Counted from the first letter of the stretch, positions 1 to 11,835 are shown. The stretch is 64,000 nt of DNA from Sphingomonadales bacterium (GCA_038230675.1 JBBRMV010000003.1:33744-97743), one strand, 5' to 3'. The notes: generated by a model not told the origin, from the letters alone. Translations and numbers: made by a program.

Positions 1-278
1 TCACCGGCAGCGGGCACGAACGCGCTGATTTCGCACCGTGCCCAGACGCCAGCAACGAAATAGGGATCGCCCTCCAGAATTGCACGCGCGGCGGCTTCGT
101 CTTCGGCAGTGACGATGACGAGCGAGCCGATGAAGGCGCCGCTTTCGTCCTTGAGCGGCCCGGCGACAGCGATGCTGCCCATGATGTCCTCGATCCGCGC
201 GAAATGCGCATCGCGGGCGGCTGCGCGCAAGGGTGCCGAATCAGGCGCGTCCCAGCACATGATCGCAAAATGCGTCAC
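1..278 (-). CDS. YciI family protein (3' end truncated by window edge)
   Basis: Not in the ORF track; manual translation from GTG at 278 gives MTHFAIMCWDAPDSAPLRAAARDAHF...VAGPLKDESGAFIGSLVIV...EGDPYFVAGVW, with YciI-type H, GPL, GSL and DPY motifs. GTGA overlap with the MFS stop. Confidence 0.85.
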   Translation of the reverse strand, partial: MTHFAIMCWDAPDSAPLRAAARDAHFARIEDIMGSIAVAGPLKDESGAFIGSLVIVTAEDEAAARAILEGDPYFVAGVWARCEISAFVPAAG

Positions 279-1585
279 GCCGTTCTCTCCAGTTGTGCGC
301 GGTATGCGCGCGCGATCAGCGGCAACAGCAGCAGCGGCACGATGCCATAGATCAACGGCACCGATCCCACCGCCGCGCGCAGATTGGCCTCACCGAACAC
401 GCGCGTCGAAAGCACGCCAACGGTGGTCGGCCCAAGCCCGAGCCCGGCAATGCTGATCATCATGTAATAAAGCGACACGATCGTCGCGCGCGACGCGCCA
501 GGAGTGATATCGAGCAACGCGATGATGCCTGCGGCGGTCACCGTGCCGATCGCGACCGAACTGAGCGCCAGCATCACAAAGGCCAGCGCCGGCGTGGGCA
601 TGAACAACGGCACCGCGCTGAAGGGCAGCATCGCGACAAAGCCATAGGTCAGCATCCGAAAGGCGGCATCGCGCCTCCCGCTCTTGCGCCAGCGATCGAT
701 GATCGCGCCCGCCGAATAGACCGTGGCCGGGCCAACGACGAGGATGATCAGGCCGTTGACGAGTGCATAATCCTTCGCCTCCCACCCGAAGGTGCGGGCA
801 AAGGCGGCGGGGTTGAAGCCCTGCGAATAGGCGATGATCGTCATCACCGCGACGAACAATGTCATCCCGCCGAACGCGCCGATATGCCGGCCCACAAGCC
901 CGATCGTCGCGCCAAAGCTCGCCGCTGCCGCATTGCCAGGACCGCGCCGGCGTGGCGGCTCGGGCAGCAACAGAAAGCCGATCGCGATCAGCAACCCCGG
1001 CAGCCCCACCGCTAGGAACGCGAACTGCCACGGCTTCACAGCACCGAGCAGCGGCAATGTTACCCCGTCGGAAACCTTGGCCCAGCCGAGCACCGCTGCG
1101 CCGATCAGCGACGCCACGCCTGCGCCAAGCGACAGCGCCGCCGAATAGACGCCGATCGGCGTGCCGCGCTTGTCGGGCGGAAAACTGTCGCTGATCATCG
1201 ACATCGCCGACGGGCTGAGCGTCGCCTCGCCCACGCCGACGCTCATCCGCGCGACGAACAGCCCGCCAAAGCCGCGTGCCATCCCTGAAGCGGCGGTTGC
1301 GAGACTCCACAAGGTGATGCCGGCGGCCACGATCCAGGTACGCCGCGCGCGGTCCGCCAGCCAGCCCAGCGGCACGCCGATCGTCGCATAGAAGAGCGCA
1401 AAGGCCGGCCCGAGCAGATAGCCGATCTTCTCGTCCGAAAAATGCAGATCGGCCTTGATCGGCTCGATCAGCAGCCCGAGAATGTAACGATCGACGAACG
1501 AAAAGACGTAGGCGAGCGTCAGCAGCGCCACCATCGTCCAGGCGGTGCGCGCCGATGGATAGGGGGCCTCTGCCACGACGTTCAT
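275..1585 (-). CDS. MFS transporter (spinster/ACS-like)
   Basis: About 12 hydrophobic segments; FSFVDR motif in TM1, GWLADRARR loop motif, RMSVGVGEA motif. Confidence 0.9.
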   Translation of the reverse strand: MNVVAEAPYPSARTAWTMVALLTLAYVFSFVDRYILGLLIEPIKADLHFSDEKIGYLLGPAFALFYATIGVPLGWLADRARRTWIVAAGITLWSLATAASGMARGFGGLFVARMSVGVGEATLSPSAMSMISDSFPPDKRGTPIGVYSAALSLGAGVASLIGAAVLGWAKVSDGVTLPLLGAVKPWQFAFLAVGLPGLLIAIGFLLLPEPPRRRGPGNAAAASFGATIGLVGRHIGAFGGMTLFVAVMTIIAYSQGFNPAAFARTFGWEAKDYALVNGLIILVVGPATVYSAGAIIDRWRKSGRRDAAFRMLTYGFVAMLPFSAVPLFMPTPALAFVMLALSSVAIGTVTAAGIIALLDITPGASRATIVSLYYMMISIAGLGLGPTTVGVLSTRVFGEANLRAAVGSVPLIYGIVPLLLLPLIARAYRAQLERTA

Positions 1586-2025
1586 GCGGCCCCCGTGATC
1601 TTGTAGATCACCACCAGATTGTCGTCGAAATCGACGATGCCGATTTCGCGGCCGATTCGCCCGTCCTTGGTTTTCAGCACGGCCTCGTCATGGACCGTCA
1701 GGCCCAGAGCGCGCGCGCCTGCCATCACCGCATCGGGATCGTCGATTTCAAGCACGATCGCCGATCGGCGCGGGTGCGGGACGGGGGCAAGCGTTATGCC
1801 GGCGATCTCGGTGAGTGCCATCACGCGTTCCTGGCTTTGGGTCGACAGCACGCAAAAGCGCATCTGCGCGTCAGCTGGGATAGCGAAGACCGGGAAGGAA
1901 TAGCTTTCCGGGTTGTGCGGCAAGATGAACGTCACGTCGAAGCCAAGCACCCCTTCATAAAAGGTCAGCGCGCGATCGAGATCGGCGACGACGTGATTGC
2001 CGCGCTGAAACCGCACCCCGCTCAA
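1582..2025 (-). CDS. VOC/glyoxalase family protein
   Basis: Likely TTG start at 2025 overlapping the upstream stop (TTGA); VVADLDRALTFYEGVLGF and DFDDNLVVI are typical VOC beta-alpha-beta motifs. The track's longer N-terminus overlaps the next gene. Confidence 0.8.
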   Translation of the reverse strand: MSGVRFQRGNHVVADLDRALTFYEGVLGFDVTFILPHNPESYSFPVFAIPADAQMRFCVLSTQSQERVMALTEIAGITLAPVPHPRRSAIVLEIDDPDAVMAGARALGLTVHDEAVLKTKDGRIGREIGIVDFDDNLVVIYKITGAA

Positions 2026-2498
2026 GCGACGCGCTCGTTCACTTCGAAGAAATAACCGTCGAGATCGAAGAAGCTTGCTCCCACCATCGCCTGTTCCTTG
2101 CCGTCGAAACCCGTCACCGTCCAGTCGCGCGGTTCGCAGTGGATTCGGCTTCCCTCGATCCGCGCGCGATCGGTTGTCGCTCGGCAATCGGTCGCCGCCA
2201 CCACGAAAATCGGCGCGCCGAATGCAATCCGCGTCGGCAATTCGGCGGGCGCCTCCATCGGCGGATCGATCCATTGCAACAAGCCGATCATGCCGACCAG
2301 ATCATCGGCGCATTTCAGGATCACCAGCCGCGTCCGATCGCCTTTTTGGCCAGCCGCCAGTTGCGTGCCCGACAGCGTGAAGGGCGTGTCCATCACCCGC
2401 GTCATCCCGAACACGCGCTCATACCAACCCGCCGCCGGTTCGATATCGCGCACCATCAGCGTGGTTCGCTTGATCAGATCGGGTGTCTGATCAGCCAT
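2022..2498 (-). CDS. VOC/glyoxalase family protein
   Basis: RTTLMVRDIEPAAGWYERVFGM and FFDLDGYFFEV motifs; ATG at 2498 overlaps the DUF1330 3' end. Confidence 0.8.
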   Translation of the reverse strand: MADQTPDLIKRTTLMVRDIEPAAGWYERVFGMTRVMDTPFTLSGTQLAAGQKGDRTRLVILKCADDLVGMIGLLQWIDPPMEAPAELPTRIAFGAPIFVVAATDCRATTDRARIEGSRIHCEPRDWTVTGFDGKEQAMVGASFFDLDGYFFEVNERVA

Positions 2499-2796
2499 TG
2501 ATCGTCGGCGCCTCGATGAGGAGGACCTGGCAATCGGCAATGCCGTCGCGCAGCTTTTTTACTTCGGCATATTCGGGCGAGTTCCAGAATGCCTCCGCCG
2601 CTGCCCGATCGGGCCACTCTGAGATCACCATCGAGGCGCCGTCGCCAAAACCACCCTCGAGCAGCGTCACGCCCGGGCCGCGCAGCACATATTTGCCGCC
2701 GAACCGCTCGACGAGCTTGCCCGCCGCCTGGCCATAGCCGCCGATAAAGGCATCGCGGTCGGCGATCTTTGCGGTCACGATCATATAGGCGGCCAT
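2491..2796 (-). CDS. DUF1330 domain protein
   Basis: FGGKYVLRG, LEGGF, VISEWPDRAAAEAFWNSPEYAEVKKLR signature. Confidence 0.88.
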   Translation of the reverse strand: MAAYMIVTAKIADRDAFIGGYGQAAGKLVERFGGKYVLRGPGVTLLEGGFGDGASMVISEWPDRAAAEAFWNSPEYAEVKKLRDGIADCQVLLIEAPTING

Positions 2797-2812: not shown

Positions 2813-2829
2813 ATTTGTCCGGACAAGCT
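2813..2829. promoter_or_regulatory. Palindromic operator copy 1 (ATTTGTCCGGACAAGCT) overlapping a candidate -10 of the DUF1330 operon
   Basis: Perfect 12-bp palindrome TTGTCCGGACAA at 2815-2826; minus-strand TTGCGC (2852-2847)-N16-TAGCTT (2830-2825) promoter-like motif overlaps it. Confidence 0.7.
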
Positions 2830-2860
2830 ATCGCACCGGCGGTCGCGCGCAAGCGCGAAA

Positions 2861-3292
2861 TCACAGCCGCGCCGAATCTTCGTATAATCGCCGGATATAG
2901 GTGATCGCGGCATCGGGGGCCTCGCACCAGCCGACGAAACGATCATCGGCCACTAGCGCCATCACGTGATTGTCGCCGCCCATCGCCCGCCCGGCAACCG
3001 CCGCGGGGGCACCGCTCGTGAAACGGATATCCCAGCGCATCCGGGCGATCAGCATCGAAAACCGGCCATCGAGCGGCACCGGCACCACGTCGCTAAAGCT
3101 CAGCCGCAGCGTCTCGTGCATCGCCTCGTTGGCTTGCCAATACGCCACGGTATCGGTCCAGCTATTGAAAAAGCTCGACACCTCTTCGGCCTTGTAGAAA
3201 CGGAAGCCCGCGCTGTCCCAAAAGTCTGCGATCGCATCGGCACGGCCCGTCGCCCAGGCGGCGGCATAAGCGTCGAGCAGCGCAGCGCTCAT
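2861..3292 (-). CDS. SnoaL/NTF2-like protein
   Basis: LLDAYAAAWATGRADAIADFW N-terminal helix pattern, 143 aa; ATGA overlap with the nitrilase-fold gene. Confidence 0.65.
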   Translation of the reverse strand: MSAALLDAYAAAWATGRADAIADFWDSAGFRFYKAEEVSSFFNSWTDTVAYWQANEAMHETLRLSFSDVVPVPLDGRFSMLIARMRWDIRFTSGAPAAVAGRAMGGDNHVMALVADDRFVGWCEAPDAAITYIRRLYEDSARL

Positions 3293-4455
3293 TTCGGCCA
3301 GCGCGCCTTGTCGGCCAGATATTTGCCTGCGTCCTCGATGCTGGTCGGCTGATATTTGCCGAAAAGCCCTGGCGGATATTTGGAACGATAGGCCTCGTAC
3401 ACCGGCATCACCAATTCGGTGTGGACGATCGGCTGGCGGTGGCGGGCGCGAAAATCCTTGATCGGGATGCGGTGCGTGACCAGTGTTTCAAACGCCGTCG
3501 GTGCGCTTGCCACCAATTCGCCCGCCGGATCGTAAATCGCGCTGCCGCCACCGCCGGCATCCTCGAAATACAGGCCGTTATTGGGCGACGCGGCGTTGTT
3601 CGCGACGGCGGTGTAGACCCCGTTATACATGCTCGTCGCCTGGATATCGGCGGGAGTGAAGCCGCCGGTCGCGGTGCGCAGGATGATCTCCGCCCCCTTC
3701 ATCGCCATCGCGCGGAACAGTTCGGGCTCACGCTGCACGCTGCTGGTCGCGATGTTGCCGATGGGCGTGCGTGCAATCGGCACCACCCGATCGATGCCGT
3801 ACATCTCCACGTAACGATCGAGGACATCGTAGATCGTCGTGGTGAACAGCTCGAAGCCGAAGAACACGCCCTTGATGTTGCGCGCCTTCCAGTGCTTGTC
3901 GACGATCTCTCCCTTGTCGTTCATGATCGTCGTGATCGACAGCAGATTGTCCGGCCAGTCGGGATCGCGGACATAGGAGCCGAACACTAGCCAGCTGCCA
4001 TATTGGCGAGCCTTCTTGGCGAGTTGCTCGGTCTCGGGGCCCGGCAGTTCGATCGCCACCTTGCGCGCCTCGGCAAGCGACCAGCGGTAGTTATAGCCGG
4101 TGATCGGGAATTCGTGGAACATCAGCAGGTCCTTGCGACCCGAAAAACCCGACGCATAATCGATCAGGTCGCACATATGCTGCACATTGGCGGCACGGCC
4201 CTTTGCGGGATTGGCCGCATCGACCGCCAGAACGCGCGATTGCGCGACGCCGAGCGTCCACGCATCCTTCTCAAGCGGGACGGTATCGTATCGGCCGTCA
4301 CTGCGTTCGCTGAGCGGCGCGGCCCTGGCTGTCGTCGGGGCTGTCGCCGGGGTTATCGTCGGCACGCCCGCCGCGACCGAGCGACCCGAGAGCGCCAGCG
4401 CGCCGGCACCTGCGCCCGCTGCCAACAATGCCCGCCTCGACAATATATCGTCCAT
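3289..4455 (-). CDS. Tat-exported carbon-nitrogen hydrolase (nitrilase superfamily), Ser at the expected nucleophile position
   Basis: SRRALL twin-arginine leader; LLMFHEFP (Glu), HWKARN (Lys), PELFRAMAMKGAEII, GGSAIYDPAGELVA motifs; nucleophile region reads GNIATSSVQREPE with no Cys. Confidence 0.85.
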   Translation of the reverse strand: MDDILSRRALLAAGAGAGALALSGRSVAAGVPTITPATAPTTARAAPLSERSDGRYDTVPLEKDAWTLGVAQSRVLAVDAANPAKGRAANVQHMCDLIDYASGFSGRKDLLMFHEFPITGYNYRWSLAEARKVAIELPGPETEQLAKKARQYGSWLVFGSYVRDPDWPDNLLSITTIMNDKGEIVDKHWKARNIKGVFFGFELFTTTIYDVLDRYVEMYGIDRVVPIARTPIGNIATSSVQREPELFRAMAMKGAEIILRTATGGFTPADIQATSMYNGVYTAVANNAASPNNGLYFEDAGGGGSAIYDPAGELVASAPTAFETLVTHRIPIKDFRARHRQPIVHTELVMPVYEAYRSKYPPGLFGKYQPTSIEDAGKYLADKARWPK

Positions 4456-4552
4456 CGCCCCTGCCCCTGCCCCGCATTCTCATCAAGGGACCCCGCCAGA
4501 GGAGTGTTACAGTTCTGCAACAGTCAGGTCGCCGGGATGCGCCAAGATGAAA

Positions 4553-4569
4553 ATTTGTCTGGACAAGTT
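4553..4569. promoter_or_regulatory. Palindromic operator copy 2 (ATTTGTCTGGACAAGTT) in the divergent nitrilase/TBDR promoter region
   Basis: TTGTCTGGACAA at 4555-4566 within an AT-rich flank AAAT...GTTT; 15/17 identical to copy 1. Confidence 0.7.
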
Positions 4570-4625
4570 TATGGCAGAATGAAAGTCTAGTGCACAAGGG
4601 CTCTAATTCTCGGGGGGGACAATCG

Positions 4626-7274
4626 ATGCGGACGGTGACACGAATTGCGCTGATGGCGGCAACGGGGATGGCGTCGAGCGCGCTGCTGGCAGGGAATGCG
4701 CTGGCGCAACAGGCACCGGCCCCGACGACGGCCCCGGCGGCAGAGGAAGCGCCGGCGGGCCAGACCGGCCTTGAAGACATCGTTATCACCGCACGCAAGA
4801 TCCAGGAAAGCATCGAAAAGGCGCCGGTTTCGGTATCGGTGCTGTCCGATGCGAAGATTCGCACGCTCGGGCTCAACAGCATCGATGATTTCGCGAAGCA
4901 GACCACGGGCATCAGCTTCAGCCAGGCCTTTGGCCGGTCGTCCGACCGACCGGTCGTGCGCGGTGCCTCAAACGTGCTCGCCAATGTGCAGTTCGGCGTC
5001 GAATCGGGTGCCGCCTATTTCGTCGACGGTATCTATTATCAGGGCGACATCCAGGGGTTCGATCCTGAATCGCTGCAGCGGGTGGAAGTGATCAAGGGCC
5101 CGCAATCGGCGCTTTATGGTCGCAACACCTATGCCGGCGCGATCAACTTCCTCACCAAGGACCCGACCGAGAAGCTCACGGTTTCGGGTCGGGCATCGGC
5201 CGCTCAATATAATGAGTATACGATCTCGGCCTCTGTTTCTGGCCAGATCATCCCGGGCGTTCTCGGCTTCCGGGTGGGCGGACGTCATTATGAATATGGC
5301 GGCCAGTATATCAATCAGCTGACCGGCAAGAAGGTCGGCAACGAACGCACCGATTCGCTTTACGCGCTGTTGAACTTCACGCCGACCGATGACCTGAAGA
5401 TCCGCCTGCGCGGCCAGTATCAGCAGAACCGCGACGGACCGCTGGCGCTGTTCCTGCAAGGCGCGGCTGACAATAATTGCGCGCCCGGTTTTCGATCGCC
5501 CCGCTTTCGCACCGTCTCCAGTGCGCTGCCCTATATCCCCGCTTTGCTGACATCGACCAGCAACAGCCAGTATTTCTGCGGCACGATCAAGCCGCAGCCG
5601 AACAACATCCGCCTCAACACCGATCCGGTGGCGGTGACAATCCCTGGCTTCACCGGCCAGCCGCCAAATTTCCGTACCCCAACGATCAGCGGCGTCTATG
5701 ACGGCACCGCGTATGACGGGATCCAGAACGACCAATATTACGGCACGGCGATCATCGACTGGGATATCCTGGGGTCCGGCTTCGTTTTTTCGAGCCTTTC
5801 CGGTTACCGCGCCAACAACAATCTGTTCGGCACCGATTCGGATCACAGCGACTCGTATTTTTTCTTCAACACCAATCCAGCGATCGGCGGTTCGGCGCCC
5901 AACCCGCTGACGACTGAGGGGGCCTTTGCCAACACGACGCGCAACGACGGCTATGATTACAGCCAGGAAGTGCGCATCGCATCACCGACCACCTATCCGG
6001 TGCATGGCCTGATCGGCGGATATTACTACAAGCAGAAAAGCGACAGCCGCGATCTCACCTTTGCCAATCCGATCGCCGGTGACCCGGTGGGTCTGGCGGG
6101 TTCGGGCCGGAACGAGCTGGAAAACATCGCCGTATTCGGCTTGCTGACATGGGACATCACCAAGAACCTGTCGATCACCGGCGAGGTTCGTTATGCCGAG
6201 GAAACGCGCAAGCAGCTCGATTTTTCAGCGGCGCCGCTGTTTTGTGCGGGCTATGCCGGCACCACCAATGTGTTTGGAACCTTTACCACTGCCAACTGCC
6301 TGCCGATCAACAAGGATACTGGCACGACACCGCGGGTGACGGTCAACTACACGACCCCAGGCGGTGCATTGTTCTACGGCATCTACGCACAGGGCCGCAA
6401 GCCGAGCGGGTTCAACGGCGCTGCGGGGGTAACCGCAAGTGCCCAAACCGGCCAGAACTTCATCAACTACCTCTCCGAGCAATCGGAAGGGTTTGAAATC
6501 GGCACTAAATTCTCGTTGATTGAAAACCGCCTGCGCGTTCAATTTTCGGCGTTCACCACGCAGTTGACCAACGTGCAGTTGACCACCGCGATTCCCAATC
6601 CCAACGGCACTGGGGCGATCAGCTCGGTGGTCACCAACCAGGGCAACGCCCGCACCAGCGGCTTCGAGCTGGAAGTCCAGGCCGCGCCCAGCGACAGGCT
6701 GAACCTTGGCTTTGGCTTCTCCTTCGTCGATGCACGCTTCACATCGGGTTGCGATGCGGATCAGTTCATCCTCAATTCGGGCGGCTTGCGACCCAATTTC
6801 GACACCCGCAACCCGACCGCAGCAGGGGCACCTTTGTGCAGCATCGCTGGCAAGACGCTGCCGCTCGGCTCCCCCGTCACGGTCAACGGCACCGCGACCT
6901 ACACGGTGCCACTGCGGGGCAATCTGTCTTTGTGGGCGAACAGCAATTTCAGCTATGAAGCGCACAAGTTCGTTCAGGTCGACAATCTGGCAAGCGTTGG
7001 CGACGCTTTCCTCGTCAACAGCCGCATCGGCATTCGATCCGGGCAGTTCAGTATTGCGGCCTTTGTCCGCAACCTGACCGATGAAAATTCGGCACCGCTC
7101 GCCACGCGCTGGTTCGATTATCGCTACGGTGCCGGCACGGTCGGGCTTCCGGCTGCAACGACGGTTACCTTTGACGGGCGCCCGGCGCAGATCGAAACCG
7201 GCGCACCCCGCGCCTTTTTCAGCGCTTTGCGCAAAGGGCGGACCTTTGGCGTCGAGGCGACGTTCAACTTCTGA
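4626..7274 (+). CDS. TonB-dependent receptor
   Basis: Signal peptide; LEDIVITARK TonB box region; RVEVIKGPQSALYGRNTYAGAIN plug motif; C-terminal GRTFGVEATFNF ending in Phe. ATG at 4626 preferred over GTG at 4590. Confidence 0.95.
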   Translation: MRTVTRIALMAATGMASSALLAGNALAQQAPAPTTAPAAEEAPAGQTGLEDIVITARKIQESIEKAPVSVSVLSDAKIRTLGLNSIDDFAKQTTGISFSQAFGRSSDRPVVRGASNVLANVQFGVESGAAYFVDGIYYQGDIQGFDPESLQRVEVIKGPQSALYGRNTYAGAINFLTKDPTEKLTVSGRASAAQYNEYTISASVSGQIIPGVLGFRVGGRHYEYGGQYINQLTGKKVGNERTDSLYALLNFTPTDDLKIRLRGQYQQNRDGPLALFLQGAADNNCAPGFRSPRFRTVSSALPYIPALLTSTSNSQYFCGTIKPQPNNIRLNTDPVAVTIPGFTGQPPNFRTPTISGVYDGTAYDGIQNDQYYGTAIIDWDILGSGFVFSSLSGYRANNNLFGTDSDHSDSYFFFNTNPAIGGSAPNPLTTEGAFANTTRNDGYDYSQEVRIASPTTYPVHGLIGGYYYKQKSDSRDLTFANPIAGDPVGLAGSGRNELENIAVFGLLTWDITKNLSITGEVRYAEETRKQLDFSAAPLFCAGYAGTTNVFGTFTTANCLPINKDTGTTPRVTVNYTTPGGALFYGIYAQGRKPSGFNGAAGVTASAQTGQNFINYLSEQSEGFEIGTKFSLIENRLRVQFSAFTTQLTNVQLTTAIPNPNGTGAISSVVTNQGNARTSGFELEVQAAPSDRLNLGFGFSFVDARFTSGCDADQFILNSGGLRPNFDTRNPTAAGAPLCSIAGKTLPLGSPVTVNGTATYTVPLRGNLSLWANSNFSYEAHKFVQVDNLASVGDAFLVNSRIGIRSGQFSIAAFVRNLTDENSAPLATRWFDYRYGAGTVGLPAATTVTFDGRPAQIETGAPRAFFSALRKGRTFGVEATFNF

Positions 7275-7296
7275 TTGCGATGAGGCACGCAGATCG

Positions 7297-7334
7297 GGCT
7301 CCCGTCGGCAAACGCTGACGGGAGCCTTTTTTTT
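7297..7334 (+). terminator. Rho-independent terminator after the TBDR
   Basis: Stem GGCTCCCGTCGGC / GCTGACGGGAGCC (one G-U), loop AAAC, followed by 8 T. Confidence 0.9.
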
Positions 7335-7348
7335 CTAAGGGATGAGGA

Positions 7349-8101
7349 ATGATCAAAGCCGCCGTTTCCGCCGCGCTCCTGATGGCGTTGGCCGCGCCTT
7401 CCGCCAGCGCGCAGCAGGCGATCGACGGGCCAACGATCCTCAGCCGCGCGACGCAGGCCGCCGGGGGTGAGGCGTGGGCGAAGGCAAAGACGCTGACCCT
7501 TTCGGGCCGCGCCGTGTTCTACGCGCCCGTCGGTGCGGCACCACGGTCGACGGCGGATGATTACCGGATGTGGCGCGTCTATGATCCCGCCCGCGAAGCA
7601 TCGCACGCTGCAGAGGGCAAGGTGAGGATCGTCGCGACCAGCAAGGGCAAGACGCTGTTCACAGTGGGCTATGACGGTGCGACGACCTGGAACGAGCGCG
7701 GCATTGTGCCCAAGGCGGAAGCCGATGCCTATTGGGCGAATAATTTCGGTTTCGGCATCATCCGCCACGCCGGCGACCCCGGCTTCAAGGCTGAGCGTGT
7801 TCCCGACGACCGGATCGACGGCCATCCGCTTTACATGGTCCGCCTCACCGATCCGTCAGGCGGCGTCACGCTCTTCGGCATCGATCAGGCAAGCTACGCG
7901 ATCCGCTCGATGGGATTTGCCACGCCCAAGGGCTGGCACCTGCGCACTTATGACGATTTCGTCACGCTCAAAAATCCGCGCTGGCTACAGGCGCGCCACG
8001 TCACGCTCTATTATGACGGGGTGAAGGCCAACGAGGTGTTCTGGACCGATACCAAGGTCAACGCCGCCATCGACGAGGCGCTGTTCGCCCCGCCGAAATG
8101 A
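7349..8101 (+). CDS. Secreted hypothetical protein (possibly LolA-like fold)
   Basis: GAGGA RBS, signal peptide ending ASA-QQ, beta-rich body, C-terminal NAAIDEALFAPP; fold guess is weak. Confidence 0.7.
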   Translation: MIKAAVSAALLMALAAPSASAQQAIDGPTILSRATQAAGGEAWAKAKTLTLSGRAVFYAPVGAAPRSTADDYRMWRVYDPAREASHAAEGKVRIVATSKGKTLFTVGYDGATTWNERGIVPKAEADAYWANNFGFGIIRHAGDPGFKAERVPDDRIDGHPLYMVRLTDPSGGVTLFGIDQASYAIRSMGFATPKGWHLRTYDDFVTLKNPRWLQARHVTLYYDGVKANEVFWTDTKVNAAIDEALFAPPK

Positions 8102-8107
8102 CGTCGT

Positions 8108-9013
8108 TCATTTGGCAGGCGCTGCCTTGCGACCGGCATCGATCTGCTTCTTGAACACCGTCCACGTCGTCTCGTTCGGGCGCGGATCGTCACCCGGAGG
8201 CGGCGCAGTCCAGGCGGGATAGTTTTTCGCGATCTCGTCCTTCAAGACCTTGGGCAGTTCGTCGAAGCTTTTCAGCTTGGCGCCCATCGCGTTGAAGACG
8301 ATATTGCCGTGGCGCCCACGCATCTTCATCCACGGCATCCAATCGGACACGCGCACCCACGAAACCGAGGGATAGGCCGTTGGATATTTGGTATCGAACA
8401 ATTCATCGGCGCGCGCTGCGAAATCGAAAATTTCCGTCGCGTGATATTTGTTGCCGACATAATCCTGATAGTCGCCGCCGAGCGGGTTTTCATAGAATAA
8501 GGGCACCTCGACGGGCATCTGTGCCCAACCGCCCATCCGCTTGATGCTGACGATAAAGGGCTTGCCGTCCGCACCCATCGGAAAGCTTGGGCGGCCATTC
8601 ACAGGATCGTTGGCGATATGGCCAACGGGCACGGTCTCGCCCGTCCACGGATTCGCCCATTGCCGCGCGATCTCGCCCGTCTTCGGATCGAGGAACAGCA
8701 TGATTTCGCGGCTCACCTGGCGATATCCCTTGCCACGCTTCGGGTCCTCGACAGCAACGCATTGGCGCACGTTCATGCCCTCGCCAAGGAACAGCAGTTT
8801 GTCGGGTTCGCCGTCGATCCGGGAATACACCTTGCCCGACCAGTAATAGACCGCCGGGGTGCCGTCCTTGACGCCGCACTGCGTCCGCTTGCTGATCTCA
8901 AGCGCGTCGGCGGGCACATTAGGGTCGAGCTGACGCGCAGTTGCGGGCGGGGCGACGGCGATTGTGGCGGCAATGGCGGCGGCGCTTGCGGCCAACAGAA
9001 GCGAACGGATCAT
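8108..9013 (-). CDS. DUF1838 family secreted protein
   Basis: Signal peptide; YYWSGKVYS...KLLFLGEGMNVRQC, SREIMLFLDPKTGEI..QWANPWTGETV, SWVRVSDWMPWMKM motifs recalled for DUF1838. Confidence 0.75.
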   Translation of the reverse strand: MIRSLLLAASAAAIAATIAVAPPATARQLDPNVPADALEISKRTQCGVKDGTPAVYYWSGKVYSRIDGEPDKLLFLGEGMNVRQCVAVEDPKRGKGYRQVSREIMLFLDPKTGEIARQWANPWTGETVPVGHIANDPVNGRPSFPMGADGKPFIVSIKRMGGWAQMPVEVPLFYENPLGGDYQDYVGNKYHATEIFDFAARADELFDTKYPTAYPSVSWVRVSDWMPWMKMRGRHGNIVFNAMGAKLKSFDELPKVLKDEIAKNYPAWTAPPPGDDPRPNETTWTVFKKQIDAGRKAAPAK

Positions 9014-9074
9014 GCTACTCCCCCGAGTTTCTTGGCAATGTGGGCGAAGCTAACGCCTTCGCGGGCAAATGCAA

Positions 9075-9091
9075 ATATGTCCGGACAAATT
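9075..9091. promoter_or_regulatory. Palindromic operator copy 3 (ATATGTCCGGACAAATT) next to the candidate -35 of the DUF1838 gene
   Basis: TGTCCGGACA perfect palindrome 9078-9087; minus-strand TTGCAT (9074-9069)-N16-TAGCTT (9052-9047) immediately downstream. Confidence 0.7.
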
Positions 9092-10103
9092 ATCCCTGTC
9101 GACCTACGATGGTCGATGGCTCAGGCAACAGCGCCAGCAACGCAAAGGTCGCGAGCCAATGCTCGCCCATGTAATCACCTGCAACATGATCGATCGATGC
9201 CGCGATATGACGTTCGGCAGAGGCAAGCGCGACCGCGGCATCGCGTGGATCGAGCATGTCGGCGATCGCGCGAAGGCACCAGGCACGGCTGAGATTGCAG
9301 CCATCGAGATGCGCGATCTTGCCGTCCGATCGGTCCGACACGGTGGCGGGGGTGAACAGGCTTTCGGGTTGCCCGGCGCCAAACCGCGGCAGGAAGCGCG
9401 CAAACCAGCCGCGGAATTCCGCGGGCGGCAGAATGTGCGCCATGCACTGTGCTTCGGTAAGCGCCGAGGACAGAAACTCATCGCCGCCCGGCTCCCAGGC
9501 CTGGCAATCACGGTCGTTCGAGTAATAATCGCGCGCGCGCGCATCGATCAGTACGACCAGCGCCGGATCATGCGCCGTCGCCCATTGCCGCGCGAGGATC
9601 ATCGCAAAGGCAGTATTCGCATGCGCGCCGACCCGGATCGGATAGGTCAGTTTCGGGAGATGCAGCTTGAAGCGCTCGGCAAAGGCGCGCGCCAGCGGTT
9701 CGAGTGTTGCCGCCCAATCGGGCCGGTCGGAAAGCGCCGCCTCACCGTGCAGCGCCAGCATCCAGGCCCAGCCATAAGGCCGTTCAAACCCGCCCGAACT
9801 CGGCCGATCGAGATAGGCGCGCTCCGCCTCGACATTCGCCGGCGTCACCATCTCGGCAATCAACGCCTCGATCCGGGCGGTGACCGGCATGGCCGGAAAG
9901 GCACGGCGCGCGCGCAACAGCAGCCAGTACCCATGAACACAGCTATGCCAGTCATAACTGCCGAAAAAGATCGGATGGAGCGCGCGCGGACCTTGAACGT
10001 CGCCCGGCCCGGTCATCGCATGATCGAGCTTATGCGGATATTCGCGCGCCACGTGCCCCAGCGCGATTTCGGCGAAACGGCAAGCGATGGCGGCGTCGAT
10101 CAT
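9090..10103 (-). CDS. DUF2891 domain protein
   Basis: REYPHKLDH, HPIFFGSYDWHSCVHGYW, FERPYGWAW, HLDGCNLSRAW, YMGEHWLATFA motifs. Confidence 0.85.
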   Translation of the reverse strand: MIDAAIACRFAEIALGHVAREYPHKLDHAMTGPGDVQGPRALHPIFFGSYDWHSCVHGYWLLLRARRAFPAMPVTARIEALIAEMVTPANVEAERAYLDRPSSGGFERPYGWAWMLALHGEAALSDRPDWAATLEPLARAFAERFKLHLPKLTYPIRVGAHANTAFAMILARQWATAHDPALVVLIDARARDYYSNDRDCQAWEPGGDEFLSSALTEAQCMAHILPPAEFRGWFARFLPRFGAGQPESLFTPATVSDRSDGKIAHLDGCNLSRAWCLRAIADMLDPRDAAVALASAERHIAASIDHVAGDYMGEHWLATFALLALLPEPSTIVGRQG

Positions 10104-11041
10104 CGGCGGAACCCCAGGAAATAGATGAGCAGCAGGTTGACCACGAGCATGGGCAGGGCGGTGCCGATCTGCGCCTTGACGACGGCGTTTTGATCATCGA
10201 GTTCGAGCAGGGCCGCCGGCACGATGTTGAAATTGGCGGCCATCGGCGTCATCAGCGTGCCGCAAAAGCCCGCCAGCATGCCGATCGCACAGATGACCGC
10301 GGGATTGCCTTGGAAGCCGACGACCAGGATCGGCAACCCAATGGCGGCCATCATGATCGGAAAGGCGGCAAAGGCATTGCCCATCAGCATCGTGAACACC
10401 GCCATGCCGATCGCATAGACCGCCACCGCCACGAACAGATTGCCCGGCGGGATCGCCATGCCCGCAAGTCCGCCGACGACCTGCCCCACGCCCGCCAGGG
10501 CGAACAGCGCCCCCAACGACGCAAGCATCTGCGGCAGGACGGCCGCCCAGCCGACCGAATCCATCAGCCGTCGCCCTTCCTCAAGCGGCGCGAGCACCGG
10601 CGGCCTGAACCACGCATAGCATGCCGCCAGCGCGATCAGCACGCCCGCACCGAGCGACACAAGCGTCACCTGTTTGGGATCGACCCAGCCGCTGTCCTTC
10701 AAAAACACCGTGCCGAGCAGCGCGCAGACGGGCACGATCAAGGCGGGCAGGAACAGCCGGTTGCCCCTTATGGCCGCGCTTCGGGTGCGCTCCTCGACGC
10801 TCGTCGTTGGCGGATTGCCCCGTCCAAACAGACGAAACCCGGCGAGCCCGACAAGCCCGATCGCAAGGATGCCATTGCCCAGATCGCCCAGCCAATCGCC
10901 GAACAGAAAGCTGGTCGCAACCAGCCCCCAAAATGCGGCATTGCCCAAACGCTTCGGGTTCGCTTCGTCGCGCAGGCTCAACACCGCAAACGCGGCAAAG
11001 ATGATGCCGGCAAGGGCATAAAGCGCAGGCAGGCCGATCAT
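10100..11041 (-). CDS. DUF979 membrane protein (putative 5-oxoproline transporter subunit)
   Basis: Polytopic; LPQMLASLG, MGNAFAAFP, GFCGTLMTPMAANFNIVPAALLEL motifs; coupled to DUF969. Confidence 0.85.
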   Translation of the reverse strand: MIGLPALYALAGIIFAAFAVLSLRDEANPKRLGNAAFWGLVATSFLFGDWLGDLGNGILAIGLVGLAGFRLFGRGNPPTTSVEERTRSAAIRGNRLFLPALIVPVCALLGTVFLKDSGWVDPKQVTLVSLGAGVLIALAACYAWFRPPVLAPLEEGRRLMDSVGWAAVLPQMLASLGALFALAGVGQVVGGLAGMAIPPGNLFVAVAVYAIGMAVFTMLMGNAFAAFPIMMAAIGLPILVVGFQGNPAVICAIGMLAGFCGTLMTPMAANFNIVPAALLELDDQNAVVKAQIGTALPMLVVNLLLIYFLGFRR

Positions 11042-11715
11042 GCGCGGTGCCTCCCCTTGGCGAGCGAACGATCGAGCAGCAACAGGCGAACGCTGTGGAC
11101 CGCGAACGCCGCAAGCGCGCTCGGGATTGCCCAGACCGACAACTCGAACGGCGTGAGATCGATGCCGTTCTGTTTCAAAAAGCCGATGATGAGCAGGATC
11201 GATCCGATCGCGACGAACAGATCCTCGCCGAAAAACAGCCCAATATTGTCGCTAGCGGCCGCAAATGCCTTAACCTTTTGCCGGGTCGCGTGATCGATAT
11301 CGCCGTGATCGCGCTCGGCGGCTGCTTCCGCCATCGGCGCGACGAGCGGGCGGACGGTTTGGGCAGGGCCCGCAATCGAGATCAGCCCGAGCGCTGCGGT
11401 GATCTGCCGAAAGCCCATATAGACGATCAGAAATCGCCCCACCGTCGCCCCCTTGATCCCGCTGATCAACGTCCGCGCGCGTTGTTGCAGGCCGTATCGC
11501 TCGAGCAGCCCGACCACCGGCAGCAGGATATAAATGATTGTGACGAAGCGGCTGTCGTTGAAAGACTTGCCGAAAGCGGAGATGATCGCGAGCGGAGCCA
11601 TGCCGGCAGCGATCCCGGTCGTCGCCGCAGCTGCAGCCACCACGATCAACGGATTGAGCCGCAGCGCGAACCCGATGATGACGACGCCGATCCCCGCGAG
11701 CAGCCAATAATTCAC
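11038..11715 (-). CDS. DUF969 membrane protein (putative 5-oxoproline transporter subunit)
   Basis: GFALRLNPL, LPVVGLLERYGL, VRPLVAPMAEAAA, DNIGLFFGED motifs; GTG start at 11715 preferred. Confidence 0.85.
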   Translation of the reverse strand: MNYWLLAGIGVVIIGFALRLNPLIVVAAAAATTGIAAGMAPLAIISAFGKSFNDSRFVTIIYILLPVVGLLERYGLQQRARTLISGIKGATVGRFLIVYMGFRQITAALGLISIAGPAQTVRPLVAPMAEAAAERDHGDIDHATRQKVKAFAAASDNIGLFFGEDLFVAIGSILLIIGFLKQNGIDLTPFELSVWAIPSALAAFAVHSVRLLLLDRSLAKGRHRA

Positions 11716-11835
11716 GAACGCATCGGCCCCGTCCCCCGAAATAAGGTGGCCGCGCGACAAGCTCGGTCGCGGCGCACCGTCTCCACCCTAGCCGCAGGAC
11801 TATCAAATGCCAGCGCGGAACATGTCGCGTGGCGA

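Follow-up and report, generated by a model that had tools for sequence, protein, structure and literature searches.

NagR (YvoA) of Bacillus subtilis and DasR of Streptomyces combine a GntR-type winged helix-turn-helix with a UTRA domain and act as local repressors of regulons for uptake plus catabolism. Characterised members of the HutC subfamily work by steric repression (PMC4333415, PMC2853113), and NagR contacts the bases of its operator, dre, through Arg48 to G-4, Arg38 to G-5 and Gly69 to G-7 (PMC4333415). A second set of described loci, the itaconate clusters RipABC of Yersinia and ict-ich-ccl of Pseudomonas aeruginosa, comprises an HpcH-type lyase, a MaoC hydratase, family III CoA-transferases, an acyl-CoA dehydrogenase, MmgE/PrpD and VOC proteins. 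In P. aeruginosa the cluster is PA0878-PA0883, in which the same six families occur. The known itaconate clusters are described as being under LysR-type, not GntR-type, control. Likenesses to both systems are found in the genome of a Sphingomonadales bacterium assembled from a sediment metagenome (GCA_038230675.1; 2.87 Mb in 69 contigs), around a palindromic element that recurs in a stretch of 64,000 nucleotides of contig JBBRMV010000003.1 (C3:33744-97743). This stretch is referred to as the window; positions are those of the window unless prefixed with C3. The sequencing runs found for the assembly are DNA of the source sediment metagenome, with no RNA among them. It is very probable, as judged from the sequence comparisons below, that the three palindromes of the window are operators of one HutC-subfamily GntR repressor, encoded at C3:22512-23264 on the minus strand, which would act at seven sites and keep the units of a genomic island repressed until released by an effector.

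The pattern ATWTGTCYGGACAARYT has exactly three matches in the window (2813-2829, 4553-4569 and 9075-9091), and none of 100 dinucleotide-preserving shuffles of the window contained any match. An earlier sequence-only reading had picked out these three copies, all intergenic or at a gene boundary, and had noticed no further one in the other intergenic regions; the gene calls and a 1-mismatch scan agree with it. Allowing one mismatch in the 10-mer core adds only three window matches, at 3948, 23163 and 63447, all without the AT flanks and the first of them inside coding sequence. That the three copies by themselves define the regulon did not hold up. In the whole assembly ATTTGTCCGGACAAAT occurs at six sites when up to two mismatches are allowed, all within C3:622-42834, and the exact 10-mer TGTCCGGACA has six copies, all in C3:1-46000 (1.6% of the genome), whereas control palindromes of the same composition have 0-37 genome copies, which are scattered. 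The motif is thus not frequent at random positions. The six TGTCCGGACA copies and the TGTCTGGACA variant (window 4553) together make up seven sites, four outside the window and three inside, all in one 43-kb island. The sites and the regulator gene are as follows.

C3:622: site between an alpha/beta hydrolase gene and an isochorismatase/CE4/CE4/aldehyde-dehydrogenase operon.
C3:16866: site between the second TonB receptor operon and a small membrane-protein gene.
C3:17635: site before an operon for HpcH lyase, MaoC, acyl-CoA dehydrogenase and two CoA-transferases.
C3:23367-23378: site CTGTCCGGACAG, 103 bp upstream of the GntR/UTRA regulator gene.
2813..2829: operator 1, ATTTGTCCGGACAAGCT, 17 bp upstream of the DUF1330 start codon.
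4553..4569: operator 2, ATTTGTCTGGACAAGTT, a C-to-T variant, 68 bp upstream of the receptor ATG at 4637.
9075..9091: operator 3, ATATGTCCGGACAAATT, 62 bp upstream of the DUF1838 start (9013, minus strand).
C3:22512-23264, minus strand: regulator gene, 250 amino acids, 10.5 kb beyond the left end of the window.

A GntR-family regulator encoded outside the window, with its gene beyond the left edge, had been proposed from the sequence, and such a gene was found. Scanning the genome with PF00392 gave four GntR-type genes, one of them inside the island (domain match C3:23034-23222, minus strand). The N-terminus of its product is a GntR-type winged helix-turn-helix (69.2 bits against a cut-off of 27, residues 15-77) and its C-terminus is a UTRA domain of the chorismate-lyase fold (PF07702, 76 bits against a cut-off of 23.8, residues 110-240). 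The presence of both domains places the protein in the HutC subfamily, which narrows the original assignment. Its best full-length solved relatives are YvoA/NagR (2wv0, 4wwc; E = 3.5e-17, residues 13-244) and DasR (4zs8; E = 1.5e-11); the architecture is shared with these proteins but sequence identity is low (E about 1e-17). Two other island genes were considered as the regulator and rejected: a MerR gene (C3:6522-7010), which has no ortholog in the syntenic islands of three relatives (G019, G032 and G034) or in 80 loci sampled more widely, and a 223-amino-acid gene lying between two operators (C3:16935-17606), which encodes a multi-pass membrane protein with no Pfam match.

The operator resembles dre in being a 16-bp palindrome with a GTC-NN-GAC core (dre (A)CTGGTCTAGACCA(G)T; here ATTTGTCCGGACAAAT) and in having identical bases at G-4, T-3 and C-2, and its TTGTCC-GGACAA arms contain the GT...AC core expected of a HutC operator. 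It differs from dre in its centre (CG rather than TA) and at position -5 (T rather than G), and the native sites are near-perfect palindromes whereas the Bacillus dre sites are not (PMC4333415). The equivalents of NagR Arg48 and Gly69, R51 and G72 of the regulator, are kept and are invariant in 80/80 orthologs; the position equivalent to Arg38 is Ser in this genome and S, T, N, A or H, never Arg, among the 80. Retention of the Arg48 equivalent and loss of the Arg38 equivalent would be consistent with an operator that has G at -4 and T at -5.

Regulator and motif occur together across relatives. These were scanned with the 12-mer, the pattern WTTGTCCGGACAAW being too strict, as it matched only one of this genome's own sites. 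A regulator ortholog is present in 4 of 36 genomes of the same genus (91, 76, 59 and 54% identity). Exact TTGTCYGGACAA was found in all four and in none of the eight ortholog-free congeners checked (0/8), and in the congeners no site is more than about 20 kb away from the regulator gene. Gene order in the islands of G032, G034 and G019 is collinear with that described here, with operators in orthologous gaps. A wider sample was made up of 80 Sphingomonadales loci, each extending 10 kb to either side of an ortholog with 58-90% identity. These loci contain 165 copies of the motif, compared with 9 in the reversed sequences used as a control, and one or more sites are present in 69 of the 80. Cultivable carriers of the ortholog include Sphingobium chungbukense DJ77, Sphingobium jiangsuense DSM 26189, Sphingomonas cavernae K2R01-6, Sphingomonas fennica K101 and Blastomonas natatoria DSM 3183. 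Site positions relative to the regulator start peak at -100 to -170 bp (26 loci), +5.6 kb and +6.4 kb. Outside the constrained pattern the flanks are conserved as AA-T...A-TT (A in 85% at -1, T in 85% at +14); a symmetrised operator matrix was built on 124 unique sites. The number of copies per genome in an order-wide sample is bimodal: among genomes of the same family, 24 of 25 with at least two copies have an ortholog (46-75% identity), as against 0 of 32 zero-copy controls. The motif thus behaves as the GntR-family operator that the sequence-only reading had taken it for.

Orthologous promoters also retain the site. An operator lies upstream of 31/31 orthologs of the gene for the TonB-dependent receptor TBDR_b, 59/60 HpcH orthologs, 48/48 membrane-protein orthologs, 2/2 orthologs of the gene for a further TonB-dependent receptor, TBDR_a, and 14/16 DUF1838 orthologs, in the last case 40-85 bp upstream and in other genera. 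In the operator-anchored alignment of HpcH promoters, a conserved TTGAC(N) is followed after 6-8 nt by the operator. In the divergent TBDR_b/membrane-protein region the operator lies between a conserved TTGACA and a TATAAT-like box, so that one bound dimer would cover the start-site regions of both promoters. In 13 orthologous DUF1838 promoters it fills the 17-nt spacer (TTCACA-at-operator-atc-TAAAGT). The location of the operator in the -35/-10 spacer or over the start-site region of conserved promoters, as read from these alignments, indicates repression. We infer from these data that the regulator binds the sites, that it represses rather than activates, and that an effector releases it. 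A dimer would bind the 16-18-bp palindrome AA-T-TTGTCC-GGACAA-A-TT, with the conserved recognition-helix arginine reading the G at -4 in each half-site. With sites inside or against the promoters of ∼7 transcription units (∼44 genes), bound repressor would block RNA polymerase, until a substrate or intermediate of the pathway bound to the UTRA domain and released it.

Activation by the same GntR/UTRA protein, or a dual role at some sites such as site 3, is a reading that we regard as improbable. It draws on the promoter-like motif that the sequence-only reading had pointed out at operator 3: with TTGCAT-N16-TAGCTT, operator 3 abuts the upstream side of the -35 and would be centred near -46, and this assignment is conserved between G000 and G032. 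The TTGCNN-N16-TAGCTT hexamers named in that reading are indeed present, as TTGCGC (2852-2847)-16 nt-TAGCTT (2830-2825) at operator 1 and TTGCAT (9074-9069)-16 nt-TAGCTT (9052-9047) at operator 3, but the sigma-70 scan calls neither as a promoter. What the scan of the window does predict is TCGACA-17-CATATT (9102-9074, minus strand), which overlaps operator 3; with the operators of the 13 DUF1838 orthologs lying between -35 and -10, this alternative is preferred and an operator upstream of the -35 is doubtful. Against activation there are also the operators that fill the spacer, -10 or +1 region of the conserved promoters, and the characterised HutC members NagR and DasR, which are repressors (PMC4333415). 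A role for some other factor, with the island GntR protein a passenger, is very unlikely. The candidates for such a factor would be the island MerR, any of the three remaining GntR-type proteins or an MscA-like protein; a MerR gene is present in the island, the identical 12-mer is the mycobacterial MscA box, and the promoter of the GntR gene itself has no strong site in this genome. However, the MerR gene is missing from the syntenic islands and the 80 loci, the motif tracks the GntR ortholog (the 24/25 versus 0/32 above), the 26 loci with a site at 100-170 bp have it upstream of the GntR gene itself, and the recognition residues of the GntR protein fit the half-site. A reading without any regulatory role, in which the copies were left behind by a short repeat or mobile element or form a structural DNA or RNA palindrome, is barely credible. 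The palindrome could form a hairpin, and a genome with 36 copies of the 12-mer (G196) hints at a repeat; but the sites share only 16-18 bp, with flanks otherwise unrelated, all are promoter-proximal, they occur only where the regulator is present, and orthologous positions are kept across genera while the nearby intergenic sequence has diverged.

Several observations weigh against control by a HutC-type repressor as proposed here. The regulator's own upstream region is ∼40 bp, and the site there is degenerate in this genome: of the two autoregulatory candidates, CTGTCCGGACAG sits near the 5' end of the coding sequence of the divergent PrpD gene and the degenerate TTGTCTGGAGAA (C3:23267-23278) abuts the regulator start codon, and neither is kept in G032. 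At the conserved core sites, which lie outside the window, the strict sigma-70 scan calls no promoter, and the operator-promoter geometry there therefore rests on hexamers read by eye from alignments, while the position of operator 3 relative to its promoter is ambiguous. Some genomes that have no close ortholog nevertheless contain a lone perfect copy, as beside polyhydroxybutyrate genes in G038 and G060. Furthermore, the same 12-mer, TTGTCCGGACAA, is reported as box2 of the operator of MscA, an unrelated copper-responsive regulator of Mycobacterium smegmatis (PMC11711680), so that sequence alone does not name the binding protein.

The lone copies in G038 and G060 are perfect ATTTGTCCGGACAAAT matches (L030:7252 in G060 and L031:9978 in G038) in loci with PhaR, acetoacetyl-CoA-reductase-like and MetW genes; the nearest GntR homolog in these genomes is 30-33% identical and not nearby, and the copies are probably unrelated to this regulon. 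G196, of the same family and another genus, has a regulator ortholog (61% identity) and 36 exact TTGTCCGGACAA copies, compared with 0-8 in the other sampled genomes; there the 12-mer may be on a repeat element. Some operators come in company. Extra GGACAA(G) half-sites adjoin those at C3:622 and C3:17635, the one beside C3:622 being kept also in G021 and G032. Paired full operators are seen in several relatives (L118; L125; G229:C1:1686423/1686466; G333:C1:2361940/2361982; G289:C2:683819/683861); the two lie 37-43 bp apart, or 16 bp apart in the pair that precedes one TBDR_a ortholog. Such arrangements may reflect cooperative binding of two dimers.

The genes predicted to be served by the three operators of the window are listed in order of position.

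Left window edge, minus strand: zinc-dependent alcohol dehydrogenase gene, part of the DUF1330 unit, running off the edge.
275-1585, minus strand: MFS transporter gene (Pfam), co-directional with DUF1330.
Within 1582-2274, minus strand: Pfam match of a second VOC gene, co-directional with DUF1330.
2022-2540, minus strand: VOC/glyoxalase gene (Pfam), co-directional with DUF1330.
2491..2796, minus strand: DUF1330 gene (PF07045), leading gene of the operator 1 unit.
2861-3292, minus strand: 143-amino-acid gene, no assigned family.
3289-4455, minus strand: CN-hydrolase (nitrilase-superfamily) gene (PF00795).
4590..7274, plus strand: TonB-dependent receptor gene TBDR_a (Pfam Plug and TonB_dep_Rec), likely ATG at 4637.
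7349..8101, plus strand: 250-amino-acid gene downstream of TBDR_a; G032 ortholog 80% identical.
8108..9013, minus strand: DUF1838 gene (PF08894), a single-gene unit downstream of operator 3.

Operator 1 lies in the 64-bp gap between the 143-amino-acid gene and the DUF1330 gene, where it overlaps the putative minus-strand -10 (TAGCTT, 2830-2825). In G032, whose regulator is 91% identical, the DUF1330 ortholog and the receptor gene share a single operator. The CN-hydrolase gene (start 4455, minus strand) and the receptor gene (ATG 4637, plus strand) diverge, and operator 2 is in the gap between them, so placed that TBDR_a is transcribed rightward from it and the unit of CN-hydrolase and 143-amino-acid genes (2861..4455, minus strand) leftward; the latter unit is absent from the G032 island. 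The T variant of operator 2 and its flanks (AAAATTTGTCTGGACAA-TTTAT...AATGAAAGTCT) are kept in G032, and it overlaps a -35-like hexamer, TGGACA, the surroundings of which are likewise conserved. About 30 bp to the left is a second inverted repeat, TGTTACAG-TT-CTGCAACA (4505-4522), which is kept in the G032 TBDR_a/DUF1330 intergenic region (GAGTGTTACA...CTGCAACAGT) while the sequence around it has diverged; it may be bound by a second regulator or belong to the leftward promoter. Between TBDR_a and the 250-amino-acid gene is a strong intrinsic-terminator-like hairpin (7296-7327; 14-bp stem with 10 GC pairs, T-run), so the latter gene, which has no Pfam match, may need its own promoter or read-through. 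Operator 3 overlaps the DUF2891 stop codon (9090-9092) by 2 bases. The DUF2891-DUF979-DUF969 operon (9090-11760, minus strand) ends at this operator and reads towards DUF1838, with no terminator predicted between them, and operator 3 could serve as an additional roadblock to read-through from that operon.

Another module of the island contains distant paralogs (24-40% identity) of the window genes left of DUF1838, and few relatives have these window genes: within 10 kb of the regulator in the 80 loci, DUF1838 is found in 16, TBDR_a in 2 and the CN-hydrolase gene of the window (CN-hydrolase_a) in 0. The window is the lineage-variable accessory right-hand end of the regulon (TBDR_a, CN-hydrolase_a and the DUF1330/VOC/MFS unit) together with one widespread member, DUF1838.

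The conserved core near the regulator comprises the HpcH lyase, MaoC hydratase, acyl-CoA dehydrogenase and two CoA-transferases; two PrpD-family proteins, a PaaK-like ligase, an amidase, an SDR, a PuuE-like CE4, an ECH and a VOC protein; and TBDR_b, an MFS transporter and a small membrane protein. The predicted regulon would thus consist of an itaconate-like C5-dicarboxyl-CoA operon, an operon with the two PrpD, PaaK-like, amidase, SDR, CE4, ECH and VOC genes, two modules for TonB-receptor uptake and amide hydrolysis, the isochorismatase/CE4/aldehyde-dehydrogenase operon, and DUF1838. This content is unrelated to N-acetylglucosamine, unlike the regulons of NagR and DasR. The gene families are those of the itaconate clusters, but all scores are under the equivalog cut-offs: the best NCBIfam match of the HpcH lyase is RipC/Ccl (198.2 bits, cut-off 375), that of the MaoC hydratase RipB/Ich (240.4 bits, cut-off 340), and the CoA-transferases best match succinyl-CoA:mesaconate or glutarate CoA-transferases, also below the cut-offs. 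The pathway therefore resembles itaconate/C5-dicarboxylate catabolism rather than being a demonstrated member of it. Unlike the itaconate clusters, the set described here also includes amidases, PuuE-like CE4 hydrolases, the PaaK-like ligase and TonB receptors; the amide and ring hydrolases together with the receptors suggest a larger nitrogen-containing precursor. We tentatively propose, as a possibility that falls short of the likelier outcome, a catabolic system not described before and widespread in Sphingomonadales. In it a nitrogen-containing derivative, such as the cyclic imide, lactam or amide of some branched C5-dicarboxylate, would be imported through TonB receptors, opened at its ring or amide by PuuE-like CE4, amidase and nitrilase-fold hydrolases and passed to the itaconate-like CoA pathway, with the HutC repressor sensing an intermediate. 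Lineage-specific modules would join such a system by acquiring the 16-bp palindrome alone. Literature searches found no paper on this regulon or motif in Sphingomonadales and no described regulon for itaconate with GntR or itaconate with Sphingobium; for the 12-mer they returned only the mycobacterial MscA box and eukaryotic primers.

There is nothing unusual in the regulatory logic of a local HutC-type repressor and its palindromic operators. The operator provides a computational handle on DUF1838, DUF1330, DUF3108-like and 143-, 147- and 250-amino-acid proteins, two TonB receptors and an atypical nitrilase-fold enzyme. Through it these uncharacterised genes are connected with an itaconate-like C5-dicarboxylate pathway that is kept in many Sphingomonadales, including cultivated strains, and naming the effector of the repressor would name the substrate for all genes of the regulon.

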